A stretch of 64,000 bases of DNA from Minisyncoccota bacterium (GTDB taxonomy: Bacteria > Patescibacteriota > Minisyncoccia > Phycocordibacterales > JABAAK01), in the NCBI GenBank assembly GCA_963668425.1, contig OY764332.1, forward strand, positions 41,241 to 105,240. Direction: 5' to 3'. Under the pieces are notes generated by a model. That model was not told the DNA's origin, searched no databases, and was given only the letters and a program-made list of their open reading frames with translations. Of the stretch, positions 1-61,043 are shown piece by piece. A program made the position numbers and the translations under genes. The number at the start of each line of letters is the position of its first letter. Positions within the stretch are counted from its first letter, which is position 1.

Positions 1-3000
1 CATGAAAATTCAGTAACAAACCGTGTCCCACCAGTAAAGTGTTTTGCAATATCTCGCCTACGAATAAGTCCAACGCGGTTACGTCCGTCGTCTTCCGGAA
101 CATCACTCACCACAGGAGCAATAGTGTCTTGCGTTAATTTGATCGGCGCAGAGAACACGGTAGGAAGGCCGCCTGTTTGGACTTGAACGCAGATATAGTG
201 GTCACCGTCCTTGGTAAGTGATGTGGCAGTCGGAGCAGTAGCGCTATAGGTGGCAAAAGATGCATCACAGGAAGAAATAGCACCGGCAGAGTGTTTCATT
301 GCATAGGTAGCTGTTGTAGCGGGAAAGGTGACAGGAGCGGAGACAAAGGCGACGCTATTTTTTACCTCTTCCGTATTTATCCATCCATCTTCCGCATCAT
401 TTATAAGTTTTGATGGAGTTATGACAGTAATCACAGCATCGGTAACCGTAAGAGCGATTGTGATTTCGGTACTGTTCCCTGCCGCGTCAAATCCGGTAAC
501 AACGATTTTTGTGTTGCCTTTTGCGACACCTGTAATAATTAACGTTGTTAGTGATAAACTGGCGGTAGCAACCTCGGTCTCAGTGGGGCTTTCCGCGCTG
601 AAATGCACTGCTTCATCAGTAAACAGAGAAGTAGTGGCAATGGTTTCAGATCTGCCGGCAATCACAAAAAGGGTGCTGGGAGCATCCGCCGAAACAGAAG
701 GATCAGAAGTGTCACGCACTACCTTCAAAGGAGTGTGGTATGAAATGAGATTTGTTCCCTTCTTACTGCGAACACAAATATAGTGGTCACCGTCCTTGGC
801 AAGTGATGCAGCAGTCGGAGCAGTAGCGCTATAGGTGGCAAAAGATGCATCACAGGCAGAAATAGTGTTGGTAGAGTGTTTCACCGCGTACTCAGTCGTA
901 GTGGTAGGCGTGGTTACTGCCGCAGAGACAAGAGCGGTCGTATTCGTTGACTCATCCTCATTGATATACCCATCTTCTGCATCATTTATAAGCGTTACCG
1001 GTGTTGTAATGGTAATTGTGGATACGGTCACGTTGACTGTGAAGATGCCCCGTATGCTGTTTCCTGCTTGGTCAAATCCGGTAACTGTAATGGTAGAGGT
1101 GCCACTCGTGTTGCCAATTCCTGTGAGTGTAAGATTCGGTGACTCAAACGCGGTAGTGAGTATAGCAGTGTCTGAAGGAGTGCCAGCCGCGTATGTCACC
1201 GCATCATTTGAGAAAATGGTTGACAGATCAATGGTGACAGGAGTGATGGTATTGACCGCGTGGACAAGCTTTGCTCCTTGAGCAATGGTTGGCGCAACGG
1301 TATCACGAACAATCACAAGAGGGCTACTGTAGTGCGCATCGTATCTTTCTTTTTCCGCCCGAGCACAGAGTGAATACATGCCGTCTTTGGTAAGTGCTGT
1401 TGTGGTTGGAAGTGCTGATGCATATGTACCTGAGGAAGCGTCACAAATAGAAAGTGCATCGGTTGCATGGTAGTGCAATGCGTAGGTGATCGTTGTATCC
1501 TGAGTAGTTTCTGCGGCGGCGACAAGGGCAAATGCTGCTTTTCTCAGTTCAGAAGCATTCACATACCCATCAACAGCATCGTTTGCAAGTGCAGGTTGAC
1601 TGGTAAAGGTAAGTGTGAAGAGAGAGACGGTTACCGTTATCGTTGCTTCAGTGCTATTGCCGGCAGTGTCTGTTGCAGAAATGACAATGGTACTCTCCCC
1701 TTTTCCGACTGCATTAAAGGTAAGTTCTGGGGTGCTGAAGGAAGTGCTGATGACACTGCTATCACTTGGTGCTCCCACACTGTAGGTGACTGCGCCAGTG
1801 AAGATGTCGCTGAGATCAATGGTTCTTTCATCTTCAATGGTATGTGCATAGGTAAGAGGAGTATCTGCGACAATGCTAGGTGCGACGGTGTCTCTGACTA
1901 CTTTGAGTGGTGTGGTGTAGATGGTGATGTAGCCCTTCTTTTCAGAGAGCGCACAAAGGTAGTGATCGCCATCTTTGCTGAGATCTACTGCGGTAGGAAC
2001 CGTAGTGCTGTAGGTACCGAATGTTGCATCACATGTGGTGATAGCTGTACTTGAGTGTTTCACCGCATACTTTGCTATTGCTGCCGGAGTAGTAACAGGA
2101 GCGGAGACAAGCGCAGTCGTCTCTGTTGATTCTTTAAGCGTAATGAAGCCATCTGTCGCATCATTGAGTAGTGTTGGGGCTGTTTTTGCAGTAAGTGCGA
2201 GAGAGGAAACCTCAAGGGTAAGCGTAACGTCATGACTGTTCCCCGCACTGTCACGCCCTGTTACTACAATGCTGCTGGTACCGCTGTCAATAGGAGTAAT
2301 AGTGAGTGTTGGACTGGTAAAGGAGGCAGTAACAACATTGGTGTCTGTTGGGTCAGCAACGGCATATTCAGTAGCACCGGCAAAGAGTGTGTCTACAGAG
2401 ATGGTGGCAGGGGTGGTAACAGTAAGGGTGTAGGAGGTTTTTGCACCAATAGCGCTTTGCGGCGCAATGCTGTCACGAGTAACTTTCAGAGGAGTGGAGT
2501 ACAGAGGAGCATACTTAGTTTTTATAGCACGGATACAGATATAGTAGGTGCCATCACTGGTCAATGATGCTACTGTTGGACGAGTGCTGGTATATGTTCC
2601 AAAGTCCGCATCACACGTTGCAATTGCACTGGATGACTGTTTCAGAGCATAGGTAAATGCTACATCAGCATTAGCGCTAGTGGCAACAAGAGAAGTAGTG
2701 GCGCTACTCTCTTGAGCATTCACATACCCATCAACAGCATCGTTTGCAAGTGTAGGTTGACTGGTAAAGGTAAGTGTGAAGAGAGAGACGGTTACCGTTA
2801 TCGTTGCTTCAGTGCTATTGCCGGCAGTGTCTGTTGCAGAAATGACAATGGTACTCTCCCCTTTTCCGACTGCATTAAAGGTAAGTTCTGGGGTGCTGAA
2901 GGAAGTGCTGATGACACTGCTATCACTTGGTGCTCCCACACTGTAGGTGACTGCGCCAGTGAAGATGTCGCTGAGATCAATGGTTCTTTCATCTTCAATG

Positions 3001-6000
3001 GTATGTGCATAGGTAAGAGGAGTATCTGCGACAATGCTAGGTGCGACGGTGTCTCTGACTACTTTGAGTGGTGTGGTGTAGATGGTGATGTAGCCCTTCT
3101 TTTCAGAGAGCGCACAAAGGTAGTGATCGCCATCTTTGCTGAGATCTACTGCGGTAGGAACCGTAGTGCTGTAGGTACCGAATGTTGCATCACATGTGGT
3201 GATAGCTGTACTTGAGTGTTTCACCGCATACTTTGCTATTGCTGCCGGAGTAGTAACAGGAGCGGAGACAAGCGCAGTCGTCTCTGTTGATTCTTTAAGC
3301 GTAATGAAGCCATCTGTCGCATCATTGAGTAGTGTTGGGGCTGTTTTTGCAGTAAGTGCGAGAGAGGAAACCTCAAGGGTAAGCGTAACGTCATGACTGT
3401 TCCCCGCACTGTCACGCCCTGTTACTACAATGCTGCTGGTACCGCTGTCAATAGGAGTAATAGTGAGTGTTGGACTGGTAAAGGAGGCAGTAACAACATT
3501 GGTGTCTGTTGGGTCAGCAACGGCATATTCAGTAGCACCGGCAAAGAGTGTGTCTACAGAGATGGTGGCAGGGGTGGTAACAGTAAGGGTGTAGGAGGTT
3601 TTTGCAGAAGTGAGGAGCTCGGGAACAGTGGTATCGCGAACAAGGGTAACTGGTTCAGAGTATTGTGTAGTAAGCCCGGCAGTTGCAGCCATAACACAGA
3701 TATAGTAGGTGCCATCACTGGTCAATGATGCTACTGTTGGACGAGTGCTGGTATATGTTCCAAAGTCCGCATCACATGTTGTGATAGCGGTAGTAGATGT
3801 TTTTAGTGCGTATTGAACTTTTGCGAAGAAGGGCGAAACGATAGGAGCTGTAATCAGAGCACTCTTTTTAGTAGATTCTGGAGCGCTGATATACCCATCT
3901 GTTGCATCATTTGTAAGCACCGATTTGGTAATAAACTTAATACGAGAAGCAAAGACGACAACACTCACAACCTCAGAAACTGAATTACCTGCCACATCAT
4001 GTCCGGTGATCTCAACTGTGGCAGACCCTTCATCAATACCGCTGATATGCAACATGTCTAATGAAGAAATGGAGGCACTTATCACCCTTTCGTCACTTGG
4101 TGTCCCTACTGTGTAGCGAACCGCATCATTAAAGACATCAGTGAGAGGGAGAGTAACGGGTGTCCCAGTGGTAATGGCGTAGGAAAGAGTAGCATCAGGC
4201 ACAATAGTAGGTATCACCGTGTCCCGACGAATACGACGCGGAGGAAGATACTCAACTGCATCCACATCACCAGAGAGGCGACGAGTACCACGAACACAAA
4301 GATAGTAATCACCGTCTTGTTTGAGATCTGTAATGCGAGGAAGAGCCGCCTTAAACAAAGTAGAAAATCCAGTTTCGCAGGAAGTAATAGGATCGGCTGA
4401 GTGCTTGAGTGCATACGCAACAGTGGTATTAGGAGAAAAAGGTTTTACTGCAGCAAGGAGTGTGTTACTTGAACGAGATTCCTCAAGGGAGATATACCTA
4501 TCTGATGCCTCAGAAGAAAGTGGTAGTGACGAAGAGCGTCCATACACCTCCACTATTCCTGTGTTCCCTTCTCTGTCTGCAAAAAAGAAACAAAGCGTTC
4601 TTCCTATGAGAGAAACAGCATGTTCTGGAGTCGCACTAAGAGTAAGCGCGCGCGACACAGAGGCAATACCCTCAAAGGAGGTAGTAGTATCAGAAAATTC
4701 TGAAACGGTAGCAGGACATGTTGTGTATGTAGGAACAACGTCAATAAGTAAGCGATCCACTCCTGTTCCTATTGTAGTACCACCATCAAACGTATCCGTA
4801 GACGTGACATATATTGTATCGGAAAACACATTGTTATACAGCCCAGAAGTGCGCGAACCATTTGCAGGGGCTCTATATGCAGCTGTAAAGGTGTCAGATT
4901 TTAGACCGCTGGTTTGCAGTCCTTCAGCTTTTCCGTTCTCTTGATATATTATTATTGACGGAGCGCTGGTATCCTCATCATCAAGGAATGACTCAGGAAA
5001 AGTCACTGCTGTCTCAAATGCTATGACTTCATTTTCTGCAATATCACGCAATGGCGCAATAGAAGGGGGTGTGTAGGAGAGGCGAAGAGCGCCTCTTGTA
5101 CCCCAATGCACTGAAAGAGGTAGTGTTACCGTATTACCAGAAATAGCAACAGAGGTAAGGTAGGAAACCGCAGATCCATCAAGTGCACGAGCAGTGTGAT
5201 TTAAGGAGAATGCGGAAACAGAAGGAGAAGTAGTAGTCAGTGGTTCACTAAAGGTAAGTGTAATAGCGGAGCTATCTTCTGCAAGGGTTGCGCGCTCAAG
5301 AGTAGGAATAGTTGTATCAATAGTACCAAAAGGGATGGCGGCACTCTCTAGTACAGGAGGTGTGGGGGTGTTGTCATTACCATCCTCAACAAGTATGCAA
5401 AATGTGTGCCTAGAAAGATCTGTAGTAATCTCTACAACTGCCTCTGTGGGAAGAGAGGCGTACTTTGAAGAAAGTACTATCTCTCCCGTGGTAAGAGTGC
5501 CGTCCTTGAGCGCAGTAGCAGAAGGACACGTGTCATCCTCAGGGATAAGTGCAGCAATAACCTGATCAACACCTGAAACAAGCACTTCCCCAGAGACCCT
5601 ATCACGAACAACGACATAGAAAGTTTGCTCTGCTCGTACAGGAATTTTTTTAACAATCTCTCCTGCTACAGAAGAGTAAAAAAGGTGGTCTGTAGACACC
5701 CCTTCTTTCTGTAGTCCGGCACGACGAGCACTTTCGGCATAGATACGAACTTCAGGCGCTATGGTATCAGAAGAAGGTGTTGCCACATCCTCAATGAGAA
5801 TGGTAAAGCTTCCTACACGCGCACCGCTTGTATTCTGTAGTGTTGTGCCCGAAGAAGGGGCGGTATATGTAAGCGTTACCGTATCACCAAACGTCCAATA
5901 TGTACGTAGAGGGAGTGATATGATTGATCCATCAACTGTAATAGCGCCATCAGGGTCAATGTGAGACACGCTCTCACCTTCACCATCAATTGCAGTAACA

Positions 6001-9000
6001 CTCAAAGAAAAGGCAGAGCTAAGTAATGCTGAAACAGCACTCTCAGGAGCAATATCTTCTTTAAACGAAAGCACGATACGATCTCCTGAAGGAGGAATCT
6101 CTGCGCCGGTAGCAGAGAACATATCTGTTGCTTTGAAAATAAAGGAGCTTGTAGTACTTCTTCCAAAGGCGTCAGTTGCGCGCACATCTACAATGACAGA
6201 GATAGGACTGAGAAAACGGATAGCTAATAACGAGTTTTCGGTAATAGTGTGAATCTGTACGGCACTATCCAAACGTACAGAAGAATCAGATGAGCGAAGC
6301 GTGACGGCATATGTAATCGGAGAAGTATCTTCAAAGAAATTGGCGAGCTGAGCATATCCAGTGTCTACTTGTGCCGAAGAAAGTAATTTTGAATGTTCTG
6401 GAATAGGGTCAACGACAAGACGAGGCGCGCTAAGATCAATGGCAACAGGGATATCAGAGACACGCACAGCAATGTTCCCTACGCGATCTTGAAGAACACG
6501 ACAAAGGTACTTACCATTCTGTGACTCATCAGGCACTTGAGGAATCTCGGTTGTAACACTGCCAGTAAGCCAAGCACCTTCGCCCTCTATCGAGCTGTGC
6601 AATGGGAGAAATGATGCGGTGTCAATAGTAGCAATACAATCACCCGGATCTGCAACAAATCCGTACACGTTATGAGACCATACACCGCTGCCAACATCCA
6701 TTACCTCTCCTGCATCTGTTGCAGGAAGAGTCGTGCCCGACACGCCACTGTTCAACCCAACAATACTTGGAAACGCGGGATTGCTTGGTGCCGACTTGTC
6801 AGCCCCAAACCGAAAAATAAAATGTGGTTGATTACCGATATCATTTCCTGTAAGGATTAACACTTCTTTACGTTGCGAACTTGACTTACCTGTTTCCAAG
6901 ACAAACTGAAAGCCACCATTACCGAGAGCTTCACGGGAAGAAGGGACGACGCGACACTCATCACAGCGAGAAAGATCAATAGTTAGAGCGTGAGGGGAGA
7001 CAGGGTCAGTAATCAAAACGGTGAGGTGCTCAGCAGTAGTCCATTCTCCATTAACAAATACTTCCCCGTCTGGCAAGGTTACCTCTGCGGTAAGTGTGGA
7101 GGAGCGGATGGGGATGATACGGGATTGCGTATATGATATATTCCCTGCATTATCAGCAACTTCATAACAGACCCTCTTATTATTTCGAGCATACACCATG
7201 TAGGCAGGAGTAGTAAATTGTGCACGTGTATCGGAGGAAATATCCTGCTTATCATCAAACCTCTCTGTGGTGCTGTCACATCTATCGGAAGCATCAATAA
7301 GAGCCACACGATAGTATGAGAGCCCTGAGGTGGTATCCTCAAACACTGCGGTTATATCGTGTGACAGTGCTGTAGCAGAAGGCGCGCTAACGTCTGAAAT
7401 GGTAGGAGATTTGGTGTCACGAAGCATTATAAGGGGTCCAAAAAATGAAGGTGGGAAATTGCCTTTAAATACCTGCACGCAGAGAGAATACGTACCATCC
7501 GTTGAAAACGACAATGCGCTTGGAGGAGTGTGCTGATAGGTGCCAGAGGAGAGAGCGCATTCTTCCGGTGGAGTGGAGGAAGGAATAACCGCATACGTGA
7601 TAGTAGGAGAAGCAACGTGTGTGGCAATCCCGCCAATAATTGCTTGTCCGGAATCTGATTCTGAGTTTTTAATAAATCCATCAGAGGCAACACCAAGCAA
7701 CCGTGGTGGCATCTTGAACAACACATCGGAAGATACAGCAATGCGTAACGGAGCAGAATAGACAGGACTAAGAGGTGAGTTTGCAGCTTTAACACAAAGG
7801 TAATAGATGCCGTCAGAAACGAAAGAGACAGCATTTGGAACGGTTTCTTTGTATGTGCCTGTGGAAGCAGTGCAGGTTGTCACAGGAGTGGTTGAGAGAA
7901 CCATTGCGTATGAAAAGGCGGTAGATTCCAATGAAACAACGATGCCGTTAATCACCGGATCTTCACTAAAGCGCTCTGCAAGAGTAATTTTGCCGTCAGA
8001 GGCAACACCACTGAGACGTGGCTCTTTTGTGATAACAATTTCAGAGGAAACAACAAGAGAAAGCTGGCGGGTAGTAGTGTTCCCTGCAACATCAGCTGCC
8101 TGTATTGATACAGATGTTTTTCCTTCCTTTAGAGCGGCAAAAGAAAGAGTGGTGCCATCATCTGAGAGTGACACAGTGGCAATTTCACTATCCTCCACTG
8201 AAGAAAGAGTGAAGTGAGAAGGAGTGGATTCTTTGACAAAGAACTTATGAGGAGAGAGGGTGAAGGAACCCCCTTTCGCCATAGCGACTTGAGAGGAACG
8301 AGCGGTTTTCTTTGGAGCGGTAGTATCTCTCATTATGAAAAATCGAGGTGCATGCCATGTAACAAACCCCGGTTTTGAAAACTCAATACATAGCGCAACG
8401 AGTCCGTTTTTAGTTATGCTGGTAGTGGTAGGGATGTCGGTGCTATATTGATGGTTACTGGACCTTACAAAAGAACACGAAGCGTTTCTATCAGTGCGGG
8501 AGTTAACACTTGAAGCCCTAAAGCGAACAGTAACCCCTTCAGTATCTGCCTTCCCTGAAGTTAGTAGAGGAAGATCAGCGACAACATCAGCAGTACTAAT
8601 ATACCCATCAGCAACGACAGGAGTAAGCGCAGGGTGTTCAGCAATGACAACACGAGGAGCCGTAACAAAAATTGAAATTCTCCTCTTGCTTCTACCAGGA
8701 TTACCGGCAATATCAGTTGCTGCAATCTCCAAAACTGCAGTCCCTAATTGTGAAGAAGGAAGGGCGGCAAGCGTGAGCTGTGACCCAACAAGTGAGATGG
8801 TAACTCTGGCACTCCCCGAAAGCTGCACTACCTTGAAAGTGGATGGCTCGTTAAATTCTCCTGAAATATCAAAAGAAATGGTATCCCCTTTTTCTACACT
8901 ATAGCGTGAAAGAAGTTTCTGCACGGATTGTGGATGCACTGAGTCAAGAATAATCTTGAGAGGTTGAGAATAGGCAGGAGCATACCCTTTCTGAGAGGCA

Positions 9001-9980
9001 CGAGCGCAGAGGTAGTATGTACCACCCTCTTCGTCAACAATTGGAGTAAGAAAATGAGGGGTAGGAACACGAAACTGATATATACTAATCCCCTCATCGC
9101 ACTCAGTAATCTCAGAAGGAGAATAGTGTATGGCATATGCAAACGCTGCCCCTGAAGAAGAGGCAGTGGGAGCTCTCATAAGAGGGATATTTCGTTGTAG
9201 CCGCTCTGCCGCATTGATATACCCATCAGCAGCGCTGTTAATAAGGGTGGGTTGGGTGGTAATAGAGAGTTTGGGGAGAAGAGAGAGTATCTGTACGGTA
9301 AACGTGGCAGTAGCACTATTCCCCGCTTTGTCAGAAGCAGATACTTTAACGGTTGTATTTCCGGGCTTGATCCCCTTCAAAAGAAGACCTCGAGGTGCGA
9401 TGGAGGCAGAGACAAGCGCAGGGTTTGCCGGCGCTGAAACAGTAAATTTTAACGAGTTACCCTCGGAAAAAGCATTTTTTATAGGGATAACGGAAGAAGC
9501 ATTAGCATGAACACTGTGACGCAAGTCACTCCACAGAAGATTTGGTGACAGGATGTCTCTCTTTATAGCATGCGGACGAGAGATGTATAGAGTTTCTGCC
9601 CCCTGTTTACGAAACCGAACACAGACAAAATACACACCGTCACCTTCAAGGCCTCTGAAAAGATTTATGGTAGTAGGCACAGAAGCACTATAGTTAGTGA
9701 GCGTGCTACAGTTGATAAACGTGGTACTAGGACTTGGAGATTTTTGTACAGCATATTCAACCGTCACTCCGTTGGTTGCGACAACCGGCGTAGAGAGTAA
9801 AATCTTATTTGACAAAATCTCTGACCGGTTGATATACCCATCTTCTGCGGGACCGGTAAGTTCTGCATGGGTAGTAACAACAATGCTTTCAGGAGATTGG
9901 GCAAAGGCAATAAGAGAGAAGCTGCCAAGAGCGCACAGTAACAATACAAAAAACAATGTAAATGTGTGTTTATACCCCAT
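1..9980 (-). CDS. Giant secreted repetitive surface/adhesin-like protein, partial (more than 3326 codons; the C-terminus lies beyond the window start). N-terminal signal peptide, then many Ig-like modules.
   Basis: Reverse-complement reading from an ATG at 9978-9980 opens with MGYKHTFTLFFVLLLCALGSFSLIAFAQSP. The first in-frame upstream stop is at 9999-10001. No stop was seen in this frame down to position 1. The recurring motif (A/T)xDGYI(N/S)xxE is followed by TCxxxxGTY...DG.YYxCV and DxAGN(S/T) about every 130-200 aa (for example near 9840, 9215, 8600, 3890, 2730, 1570 and 990). All plus-strand ORFs in the track over this span are low-complexity V/T/S/A-rich antisense translations. The ORF track appears to omit ORFs that lack a stop inside the window. 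Confidence 0.72.
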   Translation of the reverse strand, partial: MGYKHTFTLFFVLLLCALGSFSLIAFAQSPESIVVTTHAELTGPAEDGYINRSEILSNKILLSTPVVATNGVTVEYAVQKSPSPSTTFINCSTLTNYSASVPTTINLFRGLEGDGVYFVCVRFRKQGAETLYISRPHAIKRDILSPNLLWSDLRHSVHANASSVIPIKNAFSEGNSLKFTVSAPANPALVSASIAPRGLLLKGIKPGNTTVKVSASDKAGNSATATFTVQILSLLPKLSITTQPTLINSAADGYINAAERLQRNIPLMRAPTASSSGAAFAYAIHYSPSEITECDEGISIYQFRVPTPHFLTPIVDEEGGTYYLCARASQKGYAPAYSQPLKIILDSVHPQSVQKLLSRYSVEKGDTISFDISGEFNEPSTFKVVQLSGSARVTISLVGSQLTLAALPSSQLGTAVLEIAATDIAGNPGRSKRRISIFVTAPRVVIAEHPALTPVVADGYISTADVVADLPLLTSGKADTEGVTVRFRASSVNSRTDRNASCSFVRSSNHQYSTDIPTTTSITKNGLVALCIEFSKPGFVTWHAPRFFIMRDTTAPKKTARSSQVAMAKGGSFTLSPHKFFVKESTPSHFTLSSVEDSEIATVSLSDDGTTLSFAALKEGKTSVSIQAADVAGNTTTRQLSLVVSSEIVITKEPRLSGVASDGKITLAERFSEDPVINGIVVSLESTAFSYAMVLSTTPVTTCTASTGTYKETVPNAVSFVSDGIYYLCVKAANSPLSPVYSAPLRIAVSSDVLFKMPPRLLGVASDGFIKNSESDSGQAIIGGIATHVASPTITYAVIPSSTPPEECALSSGTYQHTPPSALSFSTDGTYSLCVQVFKGNFPPSFFGPLIMLRDTKSPTISDVSAPSATALSHDITAVFEDTTSGLSYYRVALIDASDRCDSTTERFDDKQDISSDTRAQFTTPAYMVYARNNKRVCYEVADNAGNISYTQSRIIPIRSSTLTAEVTLPDGEVFVNGEWTTAEHLTVLITDPVSPHALTIDLSRCDECRVVPSSREALGNGGFQFVLETGKSSSQRKEVLILTGNDIGNQPHFIFRFGADKSAPSNPAFPSIVGLNSGVSGTTLPATDAGEVMDVGSGVWSHNVYGFVADPGDCIATIDTASFLPLHSSIEGEGAWLTGSVTTEIPQVPDESQNGKYLCRVLQDRVGNIAVRVSDIPVAIDLSAPRLVVDPIPEHSKLLSSAQVDTGYAQLANFFEDTSPITYAVTLRSSDSSVRLDSAVQIHTITENSLLAIRFLSPISVIVDVRATDAFGRSTTSSFIFKATDMFSATGAEIPPSGDRIVLSFKEDIAPESAVSALLSSAFSLSVTAIDGEGESVSHIDPDGAITVDGSIISLPLRTYWTFGDTVTLTYTAPSSGTTLQNTSGARVGSFTILIEDVATPSSDTIAPEVRIYAESARRAGLQKEGVSTDHLFYSSVAGEIVKKIPVRAEQTFYVVVRDRVSGEVLVSGVDQVIAALIPEDDTCPSATALKDGTLTTGEIVLSSKYASLPTEAVVEITTDLSRHTFCILVEDGNDNTPTPPVLESAAIPFGTIDTTIPTLERATLAEDSSAITLTFSEPLTTTSPSVSAFSLNHTARALDGSAVSYLTSVAISGNTVTLPLSVHWGTRGALRLSYTPPSIAPLRDIAENEVIAFETAVTFPESFLDDEDTSAPSIIIYQENGKAEGLQTSGLKSDTFTAAYRAPANGSRTSGLYNNVFSDTIYVTSTDTFDGGTTIGTGVDRLLIDVVPTYTTCPATVSEFSDTTTSFEGIASVSRALTLSATPEHAVSLIGRTLCFFFADREGNTGIVEVYGRSSSLPLSSEASDRYISLEESRSSNTLLAAVKPFSPNTTVAYALKHSADPITSCETGFSTLFKAALPRITDLKQDGDYYLCVRGTRRLSGDVDAVEYLPPRRIRRDTVIPTIVPDATLSYAITTGTPVTLPLTDVFNDAVRYTVGTPSDERVISASISSLDMLHISGIDEGSATVEITGHDVAGNSVSEVVSVVVFASRIKFITKSVLTNDATDGYISAPESTKKSALITAPIVSPFFAKVQYALKTSTTAITTCDADFGTYTSTRPTVASLTSDGTYYICVMAATAGLTTQYSEPVTLVRDTTVPELLTSAKTSYTLTVTTPATISVDTLFAGATEYAVADPTDTNVVTASFTSPTLTITPIDSGTSSIVVTGRDSAGNSHDVTLTLEVSSLALTAKTAPTLLNDATDGFITLKESTETTALVSAPVTTPAAIAKYAVKHSSTAITTCDATFGTYSTTVPTAVDLSKDGDHYLCALSEKKGYITIYTTPLKVVRDTVAPSIVADTPLTYAHTIEDERTIDLSDIFTGAVTYSVGAPSDSSVISTSFSTPELTFNAVGKGESTIVISATDTAGNSTEATITVTVSLFTLTFTSQPTLANDAVDGYVNAQESSATTSLVATSANADVAFTYALKQSSSAIATCDADFGTYTSTRPTVASLTSDGTYYICIRAIKTKYAPLYSTPLKVTRDSIAPQSAIGAKTSYTLTVTTPATISVDTLFAGATEYAVADPTDTNVVTASFTSPTLTITPIDSGTSSIVVTGRDSAGNSHDVTLTLEVSSLALTAKTAPTLLNDATDGFITLKESTETTALVSAPVTTPAAIAKYAVKHSSTAITTCDATFGTYSTTVPTAVDLSKDGDHYLCALSEKKGYITIYTTPLKVVRDTVAPSIVADTPLTYAHTIEDERTIDLSDIFTGAVTYSVGAPSDSSVISTSFSTPELTFNAVGKGESTIVISATDTAGNSTEATITVTVSLFTLTFTSQPALANDAVDGYVNASELRKAAFALVAAAETTQDTTITYALHYHATDALSICDASSGTYASALPTTTALTKDGMYSLCARAEKERYDAHYSSPLVIVRDTVAPTIAQGAKLVHAVNTITPVTIDLSTIFSNDAVTYAAGTPSDTAILTTAFESPNLTLTGIGNTSGTSTITVTGFDQAGNSIRGIFTVNVTVSTITITTPVTLINDAEDGYINEDESTNTTALVSAAVTTPTTTTEYAVKHSTNTISACDASFATYSATAPTAASLAKDGDHYICVRSKKGTNLISYHTPLKVVRDTSDPSVSADAPSTLFVIAGRSETIATTSLFTDEAVHFSAESPTETEVATASLSLTTLIITGVAKGNTKIVVTGFDAAGNSTEITIALTVTDAVITVITPSKLINDAEDGWINTEEVKNSVAFVSAPVTFPATTATYAMKHSAGAISSCDASFATYSATAPTATSLTKDGDHYICVQVQTGGLPTVFSAPIKLTQDTIAPVVSDVPEDDGRNRVGLIRRRDIAKHFTGGTRFVTEFS
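1556..3778. repeat. Two tandem copies of a 1161-bp (387-codon) unit inside the giant gene. They are near-identical at the nucleotide level except for an ~75-bp divergent patch.
   Basis: ORF-track pairs 1637..1873 and 2798..3034, 2035..2235 and 3196..3396, and 1467..2054 and 2712..3215 have identical translations offset by exactly 1161 bp. Direct comparison shows 1556-2459 equals 2717-3620. The copies diverge at 2460-2533 versus 3621-3694, then match again at 2534-2614 versus 3695-3775. Confidence 0.9.
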
Positions 9981-10103
9981 ACAAAAGAAGGAACTATTTC
10001 AAGTGTAGCATGTACTGAAAGAGAGATTAAAAAAAACGGATGTGGAAAACTGCATATGTGCCATCTGACTCCCCTTCTTTTTTGTTAGGTTAGGGATTGG
10101 TGC

Positions 10104-10136
10104 AAAAAAACACACCTCGTAAAAGAGGTGTGTTTT
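10104..10136 (-). terminator. Rho-independent terminator for the 731-aa gene. It is bidirectional in form (A-tract, stem, loop, stem, T-tract) and separates that gene from the giant gene.
   Basis: aaaaaaa CACACCTC gtaaaa GAGGTGTG tttt. On the minus strand the perfect 8-bp stem is followed by a 7-nt T-run. It lies 85 bp after the stop at 10221. Confidence 0.6.
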
Positions 10137-10220
10137 AACTTTAACCTTCACGTAGTGCTGATAGGATTAGTGAGGGTTAAGGAGGAATAGGAAATCCCCT
10201 CCCCCTTACCTTTCAGGTGC

Positions 10221-12416
10221 CTATTTGCAGATATCTAACCGATCAGGAATGAACTGGACGCGGTTATTGTGCGGGTGTATTATGTTGGCATTATAGACTG
10301 CACCCTGAAACTCAATATAACTATCAGGATTGGCTGCGCAGTTGGAATCACCTGCATGATCAATTTCTATAGTCATGGTCTTATAAGCCCCGGACACACT
10401 ACCAATAGCATTTGTTTGCAGAATAGGGTAAAACTTAGATGGATCGCTTCCAACGTAGGATTGACCAGCAGCTATCGCTCTAACACTATATTTAGAATTG
10501 GTTATTGATCCTATGGGTGCTCCTTTAGTACGAGTAAGATCGGTTACTTTGAACATCTCGCGCCCGGTCTCTAAAGTCACATACGCTTTTCCACCCCGTC
10601 GTTCAATTGAGGTATAGATGTAGTTCCAATCATCGTTGTTGATGATGAATATGTCGACGCTCTGGGTCACGCCGTCAATTTGATCCCTGCTGATCAATGC
10701 CCGCTTTCGGAGTATATTATCATCCTTTATCCCTCCGGAATAAGAAAGAAGGCCGTTCTTAATGCTATAACTGATATCTTCGTATGTGGCCGTGTGGCTT
10801 GTCCTGATGCCGTCAGCTATCTTGACAGTGCTGGGAATCTCACACTTACCTTCTACCCACTCGTCGGACTCATTAAAGACAATAGGCAGTTCGCAAAACG
10901 CTCTTATGAGAATTATATTAAACGGAGTAAACCTATGGACTCTTGTCCAACCTTCTGGTCTGTGCATTCGTATTGCATAGATTCCAACATCCCCATTTGG
11001 ATCAGTTATCATAGTTCCTGAGATGTCAAATATCTTCTCACCCAAGTCATAGACACAACCTCCTATAGAACATCTATCAAATACCCACATACTTTGATCG
11101 GGAGTGAATACACCATTGGAATATGTGCCGTTATACCAGGTAAATTCAGCTCCCCATGCTTCTAATTCAGAAATACCTTCAATTCTGAATGGCGCCTGTG
11201 GAGGAATCTGTTTAACGGATATATCTAGTGTATTCCAGGTCAACCCAAATGACCCCCTAAATTCTTCACCCTCCCTTACGGCAATATTATCGTTCGCAAT
11301 CGGCCCGCCCCCAAATCTTCCGACAATTTCATCGTCAGTGGTTTGGATAAACAGCTGACCTTGAAGGGCGGCAGGAAGATTTACCTCGTGCCTATTCCCG
11401 TCAGTGTATATTTCGTCATTATGATTCCCGAAGACAATCCTGATAGCGCCAGAAGGTTCATCGCCAACTGATGGACGTATGATGATTCTATTAGGATCAG
11501 TGTTACCGTAAGTGATATGAATACCACCGCCAGTGCCAAGTGAGTTACTCCATGCAGTTGATGGAGAATTGAAGAAACAAACTACCCTACCCGCACTCTC
11601 TGGTACGGTAATCGTGTAGACAGGAGTGCCACCAGAAGTCCGCGAAGCAGTCACCTGATTGCAGTTGCCACTAGTATTGCCGGGATTATCTATAACTGTA
11701 AATGGTGCCCCATTCTGTTGCTGTTGCTGTTGTTGTGCTTGCGGCGCTTGGTCAACTACAACGACTTCTGGTGTGGGGTCAGGAGTTGGGTCGGCTTGTG
11801 GCGCAGGATCAGGAGTAGGTTGCGGAATTGGGTCTGCTGTGGCTGCGGCTTTTGCCTTCATACACAGAATGGCGTCAACTACGGCATCCCATCTACCAGA
11901 AGAGTTATGGACTTTCTGGAGTCGCTTTGCCTCGTCAAGAGTAACCACAGTAGCGTCGCTTGCTTGTCCATTAAGGGTGTCGCGGACGCGTGTCCAGCGT
12001 TCAACATGCTCTGCACCGTTTTGGGTCTCGTCAATGTAGCTCTGTACGTTGGCTAGCAGTTCATCGGAGACACAAGAGCCGTTGGCGTTCAAACACAACA
12101 TGGAGCCCAGTACTGGGTCCCATCTCGCTGCCGAAAAGCGACTCCACATGTTGCGAGCTTCGCTTAGCGTGGTTGGTGTTTGGCCGTTGTCCTCGCCGAA
12201 TGCTGCCAGAACTTTCATCCACCTAGCGACATGAACAGGTCCGTGTTGTACCTCTCCCGCCCATGATTTTACATCAGATATCAAGCCATTTGCTACACAT
12301 TGCTGAGTAGGTTGCTGAGTAGAGGCCGAAGTAGGAATTAATAAAGCAAAGAAAGCAAGAGTAATGATAAGCACGGTTGTTACGCTTGCTAACCGCCATG
12401 TTTTTAAATTTTTCAT
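10221..12416 (-). CDS. Secreted hypothetical protein (731 aa): signal peptide, two ~70-aa Trp/Arg-containing repeats, a Pro/Gln-rich linker with a Q7 run, and a ~480-aa C-terminal domain of unknown function.
   Basis: N-terminus MKNLKTWRLASVTTVLIITLAFFALLIPTSAST. Repeats of the form ...HV.RW..V....G........T..EA......S..RWD.V... occur at about residues 45-115 and 120-190. The linker reads PIPQPTPDPAPQADPTPDPTPE...QAQQQQQQQ (CAA/CAG repeat at 11716-11740). No family was recognised by eye. Confidence 0.65.
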   Translation of the reverse strand: MKNLKTWRLASVTTVLIITLAFFALLIPTSASTQQPTQQCVANGLISDVKSWAGEVQHGPVHVARWMKVLAAFGEDNGQTPTTLSEARNMWSRFSAARWDPVLGSMLCLNANGSCVSDELLANVQSYIDETQNGAEHVERWTRVRDTLNGQASDATVVTLDEAKRLQKVHNSSGRWDAVVDAILCMKAKAAATADPIPQPTPDPAPQADPTPDPTPEVVVVDQAPQAQQQQQQQNGAPFTVIDNPGNTSGNCNQVTASRTSGGTPVYTITVPESAGRVVCFFNSPSTAWSNSLGTGGGIHITYGNTDPNRIIIRPSVGDEPSGAIRIVFGNHNDEIYTDGNRHEVNLPAALQGQLFIQTTDDEIVGRFGGGPIANDNIAVREGEEFRGSFGLTWNTLDISVKQIPPQAPFRIEGISELEAWGAEFTWYNGTYSNGVFTPDQSMWVFDRCSIGGCVYDLGEKIFDISGTMITDPNGDVGIYAIRMHRPEGWTRVHRFTPFNIILIRAFCELPIVFNESDEWVEGKCEIPSTVKIADGIRTSHTATYEDISYSIKNGLLSYSGGIKDDNILRKRALISRDQIDGVTQSVDIFIINNDDWNYIYTSIERRGGKAYVTLETGREMFKVTDLTRTKGAPIGSITNSKYSVRAIAAGQSYVGSDPSKFYPILQTNAIGSVSGAYKTMTIEIDHAGDSNCAANPDSYIEFQGAVYNANIIHPHNNRVQFIPDRLDICK

Positions 12417-19839: not shown

Positions 19840-19930
19840 CTATACAGTATTAAAAAGAATCTTTCTTTACTAATTGTACCACATATTCTGTATTTGGCAA
19901 TAACTTCTGGACTGCACACTACATGCTATT

Positions 19931-21215
19931 TTCCATACTACCCTGCCCTCTGGACAGCACGTCTATTTGTATGATGTCGCTGTGTGTTATTTTTTAATCT
20001 ACTAGTAGGCACTATGTGCATAGAGCATGGTGCCGTGTTACACTTTAGGTACTACAAAGGAGTTTTTTTCTATGGCATTACGTACCACAAAACAATATGT
20101 TCTTTCTGTTGCACTACTTGTGCTTGTTGTTGGTGTGTTTCTTTTTTTCTCCCCTGCACAGGTTGTAAGAGATCCTTCTGTGTCTGAAGAGAGTTTGGTG
20201 CAATCATCTTTACCGAGTCGTGCACCTGAGGGATATGCAGTGCCTGCACGAGAGGTAGTCACTCTTCCCTTTACCCATGTCAGTGCTGATCGTCTTCGTC
20301 TTGGAGATGTTCGGGAGGTGGCTGAAGGAAGGTGGGTAACGGTCATAAATCCATCTGTTGATAATTACTACAATGTATCGCCTGATGGGCAATGGTCGTT
20401 ATTCACAGGATTAAATCTTTACATCACCAGAACCGATGGATCTGGTGAAGTGCGCGAACTCTTTGCAAGAGAAGCAAATGATTCTAGCAAAGGGTATATT
20501 TTTAGATCTGCTTTCATTCCAACCGCTTGGTCTTGGGATAGCAATCGTGTCTTTTACAAGATGATACGCAGATATTTGGTTGGTCAAAATTTTTTGAATG
20601 CTGAATACGAACAATGGATTGAGAGTGTTAACATTGAGACAGGTGAAGTTACTCGCCATCCTGACATTGGTTTTAGTGATAATCTTCATAGTCACGCTAC
20701 TGCTCGCTATCCTACTGACCCAATTCTGTTTGATGACAGACCTGATTACCGACTGCATGGTATCAAAACTCATGATGGCTCTGTCAGATGGGTAATTCCT
20801 GGTTTCAGCCCATTTTCTCTTTCACCGAATAAGCGATTGGTTCTAGGGCTTGAAGAAGGTGGCAAAATAATCGGTGAAACAGGATATATCATGCATTACC
20901 TTATTTATGCCGTTGATGGAACTGGTCCGCTATACAGTTTTTACGCTGCAGATACCCCCAAATGGTCCCCTGATAGCAGTAAGTTCGCCTATTACCATGT
21001 AACAGAACGTGAAGCTGATACTGGCATCCTTCTTGCCTCAGATATCTATCTTATGAACATAGACGGCACTGGTATAACTCAACTCACTGATACGCCTGAT
21101 ATTCCTGAGCGTCTCCATGGTTGGACCCCGGATGGTCGTCTTGTTTTTAGTATCGAAGAAGATTTGTATATCGCTGACCTTGTTACAGAATAATTGAAAG
21201 GAGAAAACTGATGAA
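19931..21215. repeat. Direct repeat copy 1 (~1.29 kb): promoter region, TolB-like gene, and the first 8 codons of the downstream amidase gene.
   Basis: 19931-20060 is about 97% identical to 24701-24830. The genes encode about 70% identical proteins over their 5' halves. The 3' ~420 nt are nucleotide-identical (20790-21215 versus 25560-25985). Copy 1 ends with atgaaacgagttttttgttgtg (MKRVFCC), the same start as the amidase gene at 25981. Confidence 0.9.
20027..21193 (+). CDS. Membrane-anchored TolB-like beta-propeller (PD40/WD40-like repeat) protein, paralog 1.
   Basis: N-terminal TM segment VALLVLVVGVFLFFSP. PD40-type repeats: YNVSPDGQWSL, KWSPDSSKFAYYH, HGWTPDGRLVF. The start may be the internal Met (MALRTTKQ) at 20072. 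Confidence 0.7.
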   Translation: MVPCYTLGTTKEFFSMALRTTKQYVLSVALLVLVVGVFLFFSPAQVVRDPSVSEESLVQSSLPSRAPEGYAVPAREVVTLPFTHVSADRLRLGDVREVAEGRWVTVINPSVDNYYNVSPDGQWSLFTGLNLYITRTDGSGEVRELFAREANDSSKGYIFRSAFIPTAWSWDSNRVFYKMIRRYLVGQNFLNAEYEQWIESVNIETGEVTRHPDIGFSDNLHSHATARYPTDPILFDDRPDYRLHGIKTHDGSVRWVIPGFSPFSLSPNKRLVLGLEEGGKIIGETGYIMHYLIYAVDGTGPLYSFYAADTPKWSPDSSKFAYYHVTEREADTGILLASDIYLMNIDGTGITQLTDTPDIPERLHGWTPDGRLVFSIEEDLYIADLVTE

Positions 21216-21329
21216 ACGAGTTTTTTGTTGTGCATGTATTTGACACAGGACTTGCAGCATGACATACTTTTTGCAGAGCCTATTATTGATTTGAAAGATT
21301 ACATATATACAGGAGGAAATGTAGTGAAA

Positions 21330-21620
21330 CATATGTTTACTGCAATTGTTATGCTGTTGCTGTGCATAATCGTTACTGGATGTGAAAAAGGTGTTGATAT
21401 ACTCACACCTGCTCTTTCTGAAGACCCGGTTCATATATCAGATGATGAGTCAGAAATAGCTGTATCTGATGATGTTGAGTGCTTTGACGATCCACAGGAT
21501 GTGCCTGAATGGTGGTATTCTGTTGTGAGCGTTCCAGATCCTGATGATGGTGTGCCGGATCATAATTTTATACTTTGCGATGAAGATCAGGAAGAAATCA
21601 TGGATGAGGATCTGGAGTAA
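21330..21620 (+). CDS. Small acidic lipoprotein, hypothetical (track ORF 21225..21620; start taken at the internal Met before the signal peptide).
   Basis: MFTAIVMLLLCIIVTGCEKG gives a lipobox. The C-terminal half is very Asp/Glu-rich (DDESEIAVSDDVECFDDPQDVPEWW...DEDQEEIMDEDLE). Confidence 0.4.
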   Translation, partial: HMFTAIVMLLLCIIVTGCEKGVDILTPALSEDPVHISDDESEIAVSDDVECFDDPQDVPEWWYSVVSVPDPDDGVPDHNFILCDEDQEEIMDEDLE

Positions 21621-21632
21621 CTTCTTTTAATA

Positions 21633-21660
21633 CCCCCCCCCGTATAATGGGGGGTTCTTT
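21633..21660 (+). terminator. Rho-independent terminator (C9 / gtataat / G6 hairpin followed by TTCTTTT).
   Basis: tacccccccccgtataatggggggttcttttatgg lies 13 bp after the stop of the 21330..21620 gene. Confidence 0.6.
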
Positions 21661-21770
21661 TATGGATAAGCAGCGAAAATATTAACCACGGTCAACAATA
21701 TTGCGGTAATTTTCATATTACAATTGTAACATAACCATAGATTTCAGCGCTTCGTTACTACTGTTTATTC

Positions 21771-23510
21771 TTATTTTGTATGTGTTCTTTCTTGAATTTT
21801 AGCTTTTATGATATCTGTCTCTAATCTGTACAATAGATGAGATATGCTACTTAATATATCTAGGCAATCTTTATCAGTAAAGATGTTTTTTGAGAAATCT
21901 ACTTCTTTTTTCTTAGTGGCTGTTTCATGATGACGGGTTATGTTTGCGGCGGCACAGCACCCTCTTGCTATACAGAAATTACTTTCCTCTAAATCATTTT
22001 TCACAGCTTTATCTAGTGGAACTTTTTCCAAACTTCCGCAATCTTTGCCATCTTTGCTATCTTTGCTAAGATATTCATTAATTAGTTTTGCGCCACTCAT
22101 ATTCTTCTCCCCACTGACCTTTTTTAACTCCATTTCATATATTTCCCATGCTTTCGTTAATGCGCTTGTGTAATCTTTCTTCTTGTAGTCTGCAAGAATT
22201 TTATTCTCCTTCTTCAATTTTTTATGGAGATAGCGCCAATGAAATTCTGCATATTCGGGAACAATCTCCAACACATCGCTCACTATTTTTTCTTCACGAT
22301 CTGGATGCTCTTCCGCAAGCAAAAACAATGATCGTAACGGTTCTTTTTTGTCATCAGGAATATTCTCTTGATACTTCTTAAAATCAATACTACTTAACTT
22401 TTCTGATATTTTTTTGGTAGCGCTCTCTTTCCTCATTTCACGCCACTTTTTTTCGGTACCGTTTATTATATCTTTCAAGCAATCTTCCAAAGGTTTTAAT
22501 TCTTCGTTATCCCAATCCAAAGTTCTCCTGTTCGTTGCGACCATGTCCTCTTCTTTATCCTCAATAAAGTCTATATGAATTTCTCCTGTAATGTATCTGA
22601 AGAAATTGCTTGAGGCACTGCCGAAGGCAGTCGGCTCATTAACCAATTTATTTCTTGCAAAGAGAGAAACACCTTGCATATCTTTCCGCGGTAGAGGCGA
22701 TCTTGCAGTTTTTATGATGCCTTTAATCTTACCCTTGAACACATTGTGTTGCTCAGGTATTTGTTCATCCCCTACTTGAAACTCGCCCTCTATATCAATT
22801 CCCTCAACTCTCAGTTTGTTGCTCAGAGTGTACTCATTACCATCTCCTTCTTTAACTACCACCAAAAAATCGTTGCCAAAGTTGACCCTCCTCGATAAAC
22901 TAACTGCAAGCTCTTTTACATCAATCTTTGTCTTTCTTTTGACCTCTGTAAGAGTGATTTTTGTTCCGCTACTCATCTGTGTATCAACGTCATTCTCTAT
23001 TAGCTTAAAAGAACACTTGTCGTCTTGAGATTTCTCAATATCTCTCCAATCCATTTGAAACATGTTCATTTTTCCATTTTTAATTGTTCTCACCTCAACA
23101 ATATTTGCTATACCGAACATAGCAAGCTTCCCCAACCCTTTTCTACCAGTAATTTTTCGTCCGTTTGGACTGGTATCGCCCTCCTCTTCTTTCCTTCTCT
23201 TTCTTCCGACTATGAGAAAGCGCTTTGCTAAATCTTCACGGCTCATGCCTAAACCATCGTCCTCAATCTCTATGCTCTTTACACTGTTCTTATCTTGCTG
23301 TATTGAAATCGTAATCTTTTTTGCATCTGCATCATATGCATTAGAAATACTCTCCACAAGCCCGTGTGGCAATCGTGTATACATCTTTATACCCAAATCA
23401 CCTATAGTCCTCGGGTCAAAAATTAATGGCAAACTGTCATTCATAGTAAATATTCTAAATCCACCCCTCTTTGTTAATGGAATGTTCTTTGAAGATAAAA
23501 TATAAAGCAA
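21771..23510 (-). CDS. GHKL-superfamily (HATPase_c_3 / MutL-MORC-like) ATPase, the likely second component of a restriction-modification or defence system with the adjacent cytosine methyltransferase.
   Basis: Bergerat-fold motifs: LVESISNAYDADA (N-box), IEIEDDGLGMS (G1 box), TGRKGLGKLAMFG (G2 box). The likely true start is MNDSLPLIFDPR. It lies 6 bp downstream of the methyltransferase on the same strand. The C-terminal ~300 aa is Lys/Glu-rich with scattered Cys and is unassigned. Confidence 0.7.
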   Translation of the reverse strand: MLYILSSKNIPLTKRGGFRIFTMNDSLPLIFDPRTIGDLGIKMYTRLPHGLVESISNAYDADAKKITISIQQDKNSVKSIEIEDDGLGMSREDLAKRFLIVGRKRRKEEEGDTSPNGRKITGRKGLGKLAMFGIANIVEVRTIKNGKMNMFQMDWRDIEKSQDDKCSFKLIENDVDTQMSSGTKITLTEVKRKTKIDVKELAVSLSRRVNFGNDFLVVVKEGDGNEYTLSNKLRVEGIDIEGEFQVGDEQIPEQHNVFKGKIKGIIKTARSPLPRKDMQGVSLFARNKLVNEPTAFGSASSNFFRYITGEIHIDFIEDKEEDMVATNRRTLDWDNEELKPLEDCLKDIINGTEKKWREMRKESATKKISEKLSSIDFKKYQENIPDDKKEPLRSLFLLAEEHPDREEKIVSDVLEIVPEYAEFHWRYLHKKLKKENKILADYKKKDYTSALTKAWEIYEMELKKVSGEKNMSGAKLINEYLSKDSKDGKDCGSLEKVPLDKAVKNDLEESNFCIARGCCAAANITRHHETATKKKEVDFSKNIFTDKDCLDILSSISHLLYRLETDIIKAKIQERTHTK

Positions 23511-23516
23511 GCATCC

Positions 23517-24575
23517 TCAAGTTACATGCCTGTGATGTTTTATTATAGCATCCCCCATTTTTTTTGCATAAAATGGTGGCACTGCATTGCCGATCATGCG
23601 GGCTATTTGGCTGATGCTGTCACCAATAAAAGTGTATTTTTTTGGAAACGTTTGCAAGGTTGCTCCCTCTCTTAGGGAAATGGCACGGTTCTCTTCTGGG
23701 TGAGCAAATCTACCGTTTGATATGCTAAAAAACTTTGTAGTGAGCGTGGGTGCTGGCCTGTTCCACGACATACGACCGTATGTGTCACTGAACGATGTAT
23801 TTCCATTCTTATGCTTATATGCGTTAATCTGTAAATCAGTATTTGCCCAGACATTTCGTGAACCGCCATCCTTTTTTGTCATTTTCAATCTCCTCAGATT
23901 TTCTTCGCTTAGTCCAGCCACTGTGTGAAGAAATCTTGTTGTATCTTTATGACCAGCAGAGATTTTTTTAAACCCGTTCTTTTCTCCTATAAAATCAGCA
24001 ACAACAGGCCTATTTTTTGTCTTTTTTGGAAAGACACTTTTGTCACTCACCCTATTGGCAATTAAAGAAAATCTTTTTCTCGTTTCTGGTACTCCATAGT
24101 GATGGAGGTTTACCACTTCATAATAAACTGTGTAACCACTTTTTTGCAATGATTGCACAAATATATCTAACCCACTTTCCTTGTATTTTTTTAATATACC
24201 AGGAACATTTTCAACGACAACATACCCAGGGTTATAATATTTTACAAAGCGGTGAAAATCATTCAAGAGATGCTTTGATTTTTTTGATCTGTTTTTATTG
24301 GTTCTGATTATTGTCCAGTATTGACAAGGACTGCATCCGACGAATATAAGATTATCATCATTTCTCTTGATGTTAATTTCTCTTGACAGGTAACTCTCTT
24401 TTAATTTTTTAATATCAGCTAGGATATATCTTGATCCCTTTATGTTTGCCTCATAGGTTTCTTGGCATTTTGGATCAATGTCAATACCAGCAAGAACATC
24501 AATACCTGCTTTTTGTAAGCCGAAACTCATTCCCCCGCCAGAACAAAAAAAATCAACTGCTTTTATTGCGTTCAT
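23517..24575 (-). CDS. DNA (cytosine-5)-methyltransferase.
   Basis: Motif I VDFFCSGGGMSFGL; motif IV GCSPCQYWT (PCQ); motif VI VVVENVPGIL (ENV); motif X RMIGNAVPPF. Length is 352 aa. Confidence 0.92.
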   Translation of the reverse strand: MNAIKAVDFFCSGGGMSFGLQKAGIDVLAGIDIDPKCQETYEANIKGSRYILADIKKLKESYLSREINIKRNDDNLIFVGCSPCQYWTIIRTNKNRSKKSKHLLNDFHRFVKYYNPGYVVVENVPGILKKYKESGLDIFVQSLQKSGYTVYYEVVNLHHYGVPETRKRFSLIANRVSDKSVFPKKTKNRPVVADFIGEKNGFKKISAGHKDTTRFLHTVAGLSEENLRRLKMTKKDGGSRNVWANTDLQINAYKHKNGNTSFSDTYGRMSWNRPAPTLTTKFFSISNGRFAHPEENRAISLREGATLQTFPKKYTFIGDSISQIARMIGNAVPPFYAKKMGDAIIKHHRHVT

Positions 24576-24700
24576 ACACTGTTATGGTAGCATCCTATAC
24601 TGCCTCAAAGGTTTCATGACCAATTATTGTAAAAATACCGTTATATTCATTATGACAGGCGATACAGGATTTTTCTGTAACTTTTATGTGTGCTACTTTC

Positions 24701-42909: not shown

Positions 42910-43424
42910 TATAGAGATGCGTCTGATGCAATATCTGCTAATGCTTCATTAAAGGCAACAGTGGTCAGTGATGCGCCACCGACCCGTGCTAGGTCAAGAT
43001 CGTCTATCTCTACACCAAGTACCAGTTGCTCATATGCCCCATCAAACCCTGTGTGGCTAGGTGTTTTTGCCTCCGCGTCATCGTAGAGCACATCTGCTGC
43101 GGTGATGACATCGTTATTGATAGTCAATGTAACAGAGATATTGTGCTGTACACGTTTTGGTGTGAAATATGCTGCGTCTGCGGTGTATGTGCCGTTGTTA
43201 TAGGTGTTTTTTTCTGCGGAGATGGTGTCTGCTTCCCTGTCGGACGTGGTTGTGTATTCTACCGGCGGATCTAGGGGCTGATCTATGGGCGATTGCTTGT
43301 TTGGAAATACAAAAAATAGGAGGCCGGCAGCTGCGCCAATGATAACGATGATAATGAGTGCGATGGGCATATGCGATATATGACTGTGTGATGTAGTATA
43401 CCACGGAAAAGTTGTTGCAGTCAT
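42909..43424 (-). CDS. Extracytoplasmic FMN-binding-domain protein (NqrC/RnfG-like FMN_bind), a candidate ApbE flavinylation substrate.
   Basis: N-terminal TM/signal MPIALIIIVIIGAAAGLLFFVF. C-terminal ...AYEQLVLGVEIDDLDLARVGGASLTTVAFNEALADI carries a [ST]GA[ST]-like flavinylation-type motif (GGAS). Confidence 0.6.
   Translation of the reverse strand: MTATTFPWYTTSHSHISHMPIALIIIVIIGAAAGLLFFVFPNKQSPIDQPLDPPVEYTTTSDREADTISAEKNTYNNGTYTADAAYFTPKRVQHNISVTLTINNDVITAADVLYDDAEAKTPSHTGFDGAYEQLVLGVEIDDLDLARVGGASLTTVAFNEALADIASDASL

Positions 43425-60957: not shown

Positions 60958-61043
<86 letters not shown>

Follow-up and report, generated by a model that had tools for sequence, protein, structure and literature searches.

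We analysed a 64,000-nucleotide stretch of contig OY764332.1 from a Minisyncoccota bacterium (hereafter referred to as the window), the beginning of which is occupied by a single giant gene on the minus strand. Minus-strand frame 2 is the sole open frame of the six across positions 1-10300, with no stop from 9998 to the window edge, and its first ATG lies at 9980, placing 3,326 codons inside the window. An exact-cluster look-up identified a 3,613-aa protein (P0152; NCBI and ENA) that is identical to the window protein over 3,326/3,326 residues. The complete gene is thus known: it measures 10,842 bp, equivalent to 1.56% of the 696,550-bp contig on which P0152 is encoded. Comparison with the gene of a second strain gave a ratio of nonsynonymous to synonymous substitution rates (dN/dS) of 0.22 (Nei-Gojobori). 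The gene is real, intact and under purifying selection; neither an open frame of 10 kb nor the 973-bp near-identity described below can have arisen by chance. An earlier sequence-only reading of the window had proposed one secreted gene of more than 3,300 aa over the first 10 kb, in agreement with the open codons, the identity to P0152 and the signal peptide.

A giant gene of alternating Ig-like domains

The encoded protein is a chain of about 35 immunoglobulin (Ig)-like domains, in which two types, termed A and B, alternate. Domains were mapped using hmmsearch with A and B profiles, together with module alignment (Table 1). The protein opens with a signal peptide, MGYKHTFTLFFVLLLCALGSFSLIAFA, followed by QSPES; the cleavage site was placed by eye, without a predictor, and the Kyte-Doolittle (KD) hydrophobicity over 19 residues is 2.56. 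The signal peptide is followed by three A-B units and two A domains, a central region, seven A-B units with an A domain and a divergent B, and a final divergent A-B unit. The divergent B-like segment lies at the window edge and continues beyond it. The full-length C terminus reads ...PLTLPLSISIVAGFDS and ends in SISIVAGFDS.

The A domain, present as 13 modules in the window, comprises 105 aa and carries a DGYIN motif. Positions D13, C54, P66, G75 and C80 are invariant, with C54 and C80 kept in 12 aligned modules. The B domain (~90 aa) is also Ig-like, and its invariant residues D70, A72, G73 and N74 form a DxAGN motif. Comparison of the two types detected no kinship (hhalign probability 0.1), and A-B homology was rejected. 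The central region carries DxAGN-like and TLTFSEPL-like Ig motifs and contains five Cys pairs (10 Cys), invariant in three orthologues, with which it is colinear at 32% identity.

Table 1 Features of the giant gene and its upstream flank, in window coordinates
Feature	Position	Strand	Basis
Giant gene, N-terminal 3,326 of 3,613 codons (3' end beyond window)	1..9980	-	Open frame; P0152 identity
Signal peptide, aa 1-27	9900..9980	-	Sec type, AxA cleavage site
N-terminal array, aa 35-859: three A-B units, then two A domains	7404..9878	-	A/B profiles, alignment
Central non-repetitive region, aa 860-1820 (~960 aa)	4521..7403	-	No Pfam/PDB sequence match
C-terminal array, aa 1821-3326: seven A-B units, one A domain, start of divergent B-like segment	3..4520	-	A/B profiles
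Repeat copy 1, upstream in gene (gene nt 6205-7266, aa 2069-2422)	2715..3776	-	Repeat search and alignment
Repeat copy 2 (gene nt 7366-8427, aa 2456-2809)	1554..2615	-	Repeat search and alignment
Unconverted patch of copy 2, 89 bp (partner 3607-3695)	2446..2534	-	49 mismatches, 45% identity
Non-homogenised 99 bp of the period, without close partner	2616..2714	-	Offset alignment, both strains
Intrinsic terminator of upstream 731-aa gene	10104..10133	-	9-bp perfect stem, then U run

AlphaFold2, given an input alignment consisting of the internal repeats alone, predicted all-beta structures for both the A-B unit (predicted local distance difference test (pLDDT) 95.5, predicted template modelling score (pTM) 0.81) and the A domain alone (pLDDT 95.3). 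Searched against the PDB with Foldseek, the A-B unit matched SiiE best (E = 5e-6, TMq 0.58), followed by SraP, cadherins, protocadherins and S-layer proteins. The A domain alone gave weak Ig-like matches, including SiiE (E = 0.03, probability 0.99). These folds agree with the Cys-paired Ig-like or cadherin-like modules described in the sequence-only reading. Sequence searches of the PDB with the A domain, the A-B unit and the central region returned nothing useful.

None of the 12 A modules searched matched Pfam, and Big_13 gave no match at E <= 1. The B modules weakly match the bacterial Ig families Big_2, Big_13, HYR and He_PIG, with Big_13 found in 3/8 modules (best E = 3e-4). At the level of the whole protein, Big_13 (PF19077) scores 25.2 bits, below its gathering cut-off of 27, with the match sitting in a B domain, and Ca_tandemer scores 32 against a cut-off of 50. 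HYR (PF02494; 23.4, cut-off 21.7) and Glucodextran_B (PF09136; 28.6, cut-off 27) exceed their cut-offs with matches that cover only the last 25-42 profile positions. An OmpL47-type beta-barrel domain (NF047446) reaches 65 bits (cut-off 40) with no single significant stretch, the best being 31 residues around DxAGN.

An exhaustive search of 1.84 billion proteins with the A profile yielded 274 cluster representatives (159 at E <= 1e-10), many of which are giant proteins with up to 32 A copies. In one relative (P0007), the A profile matches residues 2213-2309, and Pfam Big_13 covers residues 2213-2303 (187.9 bits in total). Because the two matches coincide in relatives, we place A within Big_13, as a divergent branch that bears a Cys pair. 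Conservation among the A columns peaks at the two Cys (94% and 98%), and exactly two Cys occur in 783/814 instances. The second-strain protein (P0001) contains 39 Cys, comprising 19 pairs, spaced mostly 26-45 residues apart, and one Cys in the signal peptide, which is the lone unpaired Cys of the giant protein. These patterns strongly suggest disulfides, probably one per domain. In the second strain (locus L001), a DsbB gene is located 8 kb downstream of the giant gene.

Concerted evolution of the repeats and variation in their number

The C-terminal array contains two copies of a 1161-bp repeat. Tandem Repeats Finder, with a longest period of 500, is blind to it, and a separate repeat search detected it. 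Each copy comprises the Cys-onward remainder of an A domain, its B domain, one whole A-B unit and the stretch up to the DGYVNA of the next A domain; copy 1 thereby begins at the first Cys of the unit 7 A domain, takes in unit 8 and stops at the DGYVNA in unit 9. Aligned at an offset of 1161, positions 1554-2445 show 1 mismatch in 892 bp, and positions 2535-2615 are identical over 81 bp, so that a single base differs among the 973 paired in these two tracts. The 89-bp patch between them covers the last A-domain strands, an RDTxxP linker and the start of the B domain. The remaining 99 bp of the period correspond to the unit 9 A-domain segment from DGYVNA to the first Cys. Hence, the near-perfect 1161-bp duplication of the sequence-only reading is real, but it is paired over 1,062/1,161 bp rather than over the whole unit, and its divergent patch, put there at ~75 bp, is present and measures 89 bp.

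Neither the patch nor the 99-bp spacer resembles any other unit of the gene, with identity in 45-nt windows never exceeding 0.57. This rules out any other unit within the gene as the conversion donor of the patch. A diversity-generating retroelement target was also rejected, as 49 differences in 89 positions are too many for adenine-only mutagenesis; no reverse transcriptase was found among the open reading frames (ORFs) scanned. TprK-like cassette variation was ruled out because no module copies that could act as donors occur elsewhere in the 64-kb window.

The second strain (P0001 on L001; ENA ERZ21861969, ctg20669l) is colinear with the window and has no indels, with DNA identities of 98.0% across the gene and 97.2% in the flank. 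Both proteins are 3,613 aa long, and the repeat copy number, tract borders and reading frame are the same. This second genome shows neither the broken frame nor the altered copy number that the sequence-only reading had allowed for. Comparing four copies, two per strain, we identified 47 sites that distinguish the paralogues in both strains, all of them inside the patch. At 20 further, concerted sites, the strains differ and both copies of each strain are alike, while only 6 sites show any other pattern. Since the patch and tract borders are common to both strains, the repeat layout predates the strain split. The 20 strain-specific substitutions present in both copies indicate copying between the paralogues after that split, that is, gene conversion. 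Given that patch and spacer are unlike any other unit, the identical tracts are best read as the product of conversion between old, pre-existing units. We conclude that the repeats undergo concerted evolution by gene conversion in the window's species.

The sequence-only reading had left a choice between recent duplication and ongoing conversion, of which the second is upheld by the concerted sites. Gain of two units by a fresh 1161-bp tandem duplication, without any gene conversion since, would explain the single mismatch in 973 paired bases and fits with the changes of unit number seen in relatives (see below). We nevertheless regard it as improbable, as the pairing is limited to 1,062 of the 1,161 bp, and the patch and spacer have diverged like any two old units while matching no other. 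Moreover, the layout is older than the strain split, yet the 20 substitutions shared by both copies within a strain need later copying. An assembly artefact, whether an expanded or a collapsed repeat, is scarcely credible: long near-identical repeats are a known failure point of short-read assemblers, but two independent genomes, 2-3% diverged, agree in copy number, borders and reading frame, and the name ctg20669l, if a name alone is any guide, suggests a long-read assembler.

Colinear orthologues of 4,082 aa (P0005) and 3,575 aa (P0006) share 31-43% identity with the giant protein, compared with 78% for GroEL, indicating a fast-evolving protein, as expected of a surface protein. The 90%-identity cluster of P0005, from a sister species, contains five alleles of 3306, 3500, 3888, 4082 and 4470 aa; their lengths are set apart by whole 194-aa units, and the number of A domains ranges from 12 to 18. 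Three of these alleles are located on separate contigs of 105-600 kb from one sample, in the same synteny. Identity is 98.6-99.9% for their non-repeat gene sequence and upstream flank, and 94% for one downstream flank; their 582-bp arrays comprise 4.9, 8.9 and 10.9 near-identical copies. As array copies differ among co-existing sister-species strains, repeat-number variation is a property of the gene family. Searches for relatives of P0001 in genome contigs or JGI metagenomes found none. In the genome encoding P0006, three more Big_13 proteins (1053, 143 and 1613 aa) follow the giant gene (L041, 16164-24829), forming with it a cluster of Ig-repeat surface proteins.

The GroEL encoded in the window shares 93% identity with its counterpart in a 'Candidatus Kaiserbacteria' metagenome-assembled genome (MAG) and 92% with the one on a 661,662-bp 'Candidatus Paceibacterota' chromosome, with the next matches at <=57%. 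The host is therefore a candidate phyla radiation (CPR) bacterium, related to Kaiserbacteria/Paceibacteria within the Patescibacteria, with a genome of about 0.7 Mb. This is consistent with the reduced-genome lineage named in the sequence-only reading. A Treponema affinity, raised by a faint PF27332 (TP_0781) tag and the OmpL47 match, was dropped in light of the GroEL identities. Cultivated Patescibacteria provide the basis on which an episymbiotic lifestyle may be assumed (PMC12206443).

Neighbouring genes and other features of the window

Immediately upstream of the giant gene, a 731-aa secreted protein is encoded at 10221-12416 (-). It consists of a signal peptide, two ~90-aa Cys-containing repeats, a Pro/Gln-rich linker and a large C-terminal domain. 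Its counterpart in the second strain is 743 aa long, and a stretch of ~275-310 bp fails to align between the strains. The terminator between the two genes, which a consensus scan overlooked, has an RNA fold of -17.6 kcal/mol (z = -5.9), and this strong terminator makes the giant gene its own transcription unit. The 731-aa protein was considered as a conserved partner and rejected, given the intervening terminator and the lack of synteny in the sister species.

The remaining genes of the window belong to housekeeping, cell-wall and restriction-modification functions. A direct repeat of ~1.27 kb (19924-21193 and 24691-25963, 85-100% identical) corresponds to paralogous ORFs of 388 and 389 aa with weak beta-propeller similarity. 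Between the two ORFs lie a BbrUII/HgiDII-family restriction enzyme (21771-23510, -) and a C5 DNA methylase (23517-24575, -), and the region 19924-25963 has the look of a restriction-modification cassette whose insertion duplicated the flanking gene. At 40118-41664 (-), an MvaI/BcnI-family endonuclease and an N4/N6 DNA methylase form a second type II restriction-modification pair. Next to the ~1.27-kb repeat, an Amidase_3 cell-wall amidase (25981-27597, +) carries a C-terminal beta-sandwich similar to FlgD_ig and Por_Secre_tail; a type IX secretion system should be absent from its organism. At 42025-44938 (-), an ApbE flavin transferase adjoins a 505-aa fusion of an NQR2/RnfD-like membrane domain and an FAD-/NAD-binding oxidoreductase, a membrane redox module that looks unusual for so small a genome.

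Two further repeats were found outside the giant gene. A 135-bp direct repeat (54971-55105 and 55214-55348, 83% identity) lies inside an unannotated 353-aa ORF (54857-55918, -). Five near-identical tandem copies of an 85-bp unit occupy 61109-61540 (array about 61024-61625), between tRNA-Lys(ctt) (61044-61117, -) and tRNA-Leu(taa) (61615-61697, +). The unit starts with ATGGGCGGAG and repeats the 5' end of the tRNA-Lys gene together with its upstream region, including a hairpin.

A candidate fibre for attachment

We propose that the giant gene encodes a Sec-exported, extracellular, rod-like Ig-repeat protein that acts as a fibre for attachment to a host cell or surface and whose repeats recombine, and we assign this reading a probability of roughly 0.65. 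The protein would be exported by its Sec-type leader and oxidized to form one disulfide per domain, with the tandem domains forming a long fibre projecting from the cell. Like SiiE, Bap and SasG-type adhesins, this fibre may serve to attach the cell to a host cell or surface. Gene conversion keeps two 2-unit stretches identical in the window's species, and the sister-species array gains and loses whole 582-bp units, so that fibre length would differ among co-existing strains. Recombination within the array could in this way tune fibre length. The adhesin candidacy put forward by the sequence-only reading keeps its standing as a candidacy, as suggested by the architecture and the structural matches.

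Among solved structures, the one that best matches both the A-B unit and the A domain by itself is the giant non-fimbrial adhesin SiiE of Salmonella enterica, with 53 bacterial Ig (BIg) domains (PDB 2yn3, 2yn5). In both proteins, bacterial Ig domains follow one another in tandem to form a giant rod, with acidic residues where the domains meet; their sequence identity is only about 23%. SiiE belongs to a diderm that secretes it by the type I route, and it has neither Sec signal nor Cys pairs, whereas the giant protein, from a CPR host, has an N-terminal Sec signal, two domain types in alternation and one Cys pair in each domain. Big_13 (PF19077) proteins, among them the Bap/RTX-type 'Ca2+-stabilised tandem repeat' adhesins (NF033510), have the DGYIN..E start motif in common with the giant protein. 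By contrast with these, the A domains of the window match no Pfam model, and their Cys pair sets off the 274-cluster sub-family.

A third likeness concerns adhesins of the SasG/Aap, Rib/alpha-C and Als/Flo types, in which in-frame repeats are likewise homogenized by recombination and strains differ by whole units, and hence in stalk length. These are LPXTG- or glycosylphosphatidylinositol (GPI)-anchored pathogen proteins with other folds; the giant protein differs in having no anchor and in its CPR host. Extracellular giants of symbionts with small genomes, for instance Giant1-5 of Apilactobacillus kunkeei (PMC12863079), and the giants in bioRxiv 10.1101/2023.11.21.568195 likewise span several thousand residues and take up >1% of a small genome. 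Their lineages and domain families differ from those of the giant protein, and those papers are not known to describe a Cys-pair A-B architecture. The giant protein thus belongs to a kind already on record: adhesin-like bacterial giants built of Ig repeats, whose intragenic repeats recombine. Its CPR host, the small size of the Cys-pair Big_13 sub-family (274 clusters) and the clear signature of concerted evolution are mildly novel.

Several observations weigh against an attachment fibre. The central 960 aa have no Pfam or PDB sequence match, and no ligand-binding domain was recognized. The full-length C terminus lacks both an LPxT[GAN] motif and a transmembrane helix (maximum KD hydrophobicity 1.17), which rules out an LPXTG/sortase or transmembrane anchor; extension of the gene to its end thus failed to reveal the sorting anchor that the sequence-only reading had expected. 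The giant protein may instead be retained at the cell by an uncleaved leader or by non-covalent binding. In addition, the two known strains of the window's species show no length difference, and the predicted repeat-number variation, borne out in the sister species, does not extend to them. Finally, arrays of Ig-like domains are not confined to adhesins, being present in S-layer proteins and enzymes too.

The last point bears on the main rival to an attachment fibre, namely a structural envelope or S-layer-type protein that forms an outer coat, which we consider unlikely. CPR cells carry S-layers, and the S-layer proteins SbsB, Sap and that of Haloferax are among the Foldseek matches (E ~1e-4 or weaker). 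A giant protein without an anchor or recognizable binding domain would also suit such a coat. However, at 3,613 aa, the protein is far above the typical size of an S-layer subunit, and the Pfam and NCBIfam scans revealed no S-layer homology (SLH) or other wall-binding modules. The strain-level gain and loss of units seen in the sister species, which is typical of adhesin stalks, would disturb a lattice.

A secreted carrier of an enzyme or toxin domain, in which the Ig-like repeats are mere spacers, is more improbable still. The unannotated 960-aa central region could harbour such a domain, but its Ig-type motifs and Cys pairs are those of the arrays. Furthermore, no catalytic or toxin family was matched in Pfam or NCBIfam, and the C terminus is another A-B unit.

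Beyond the attachment fibre itself, we tentatively suggest that the homogenized A-B array could serve as a length-switching device. RecA-type unequal recombination would change its length in 194-aa (two-domain) steps, thereby setting the attachment reach or specificity of an episymbiont, or allowing escape from host or phage recognition. The A domain would then represent an undescribed, CPR-enriched adhesion module, and the window's species a partly 'frozen' state of a switch that is active in the sister species.

Little is known of how CPR/Patescibacteria recognize and hold their hosts, with work to date centring on type IV pili (PMC12206443). By taking up 1.56% of the genome, evolving faster than housekeeping genes and varying in length in the sister species, the giant gene presents a concrete candidate attachment factor. 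With its high-confidence fold, the A-B unit lends itself to expression, structure determination and tests of binding. Taken together, the conversion and the copy-number differences show an active role of homologous recombination in shaping the surface genes of these reduced genomes.

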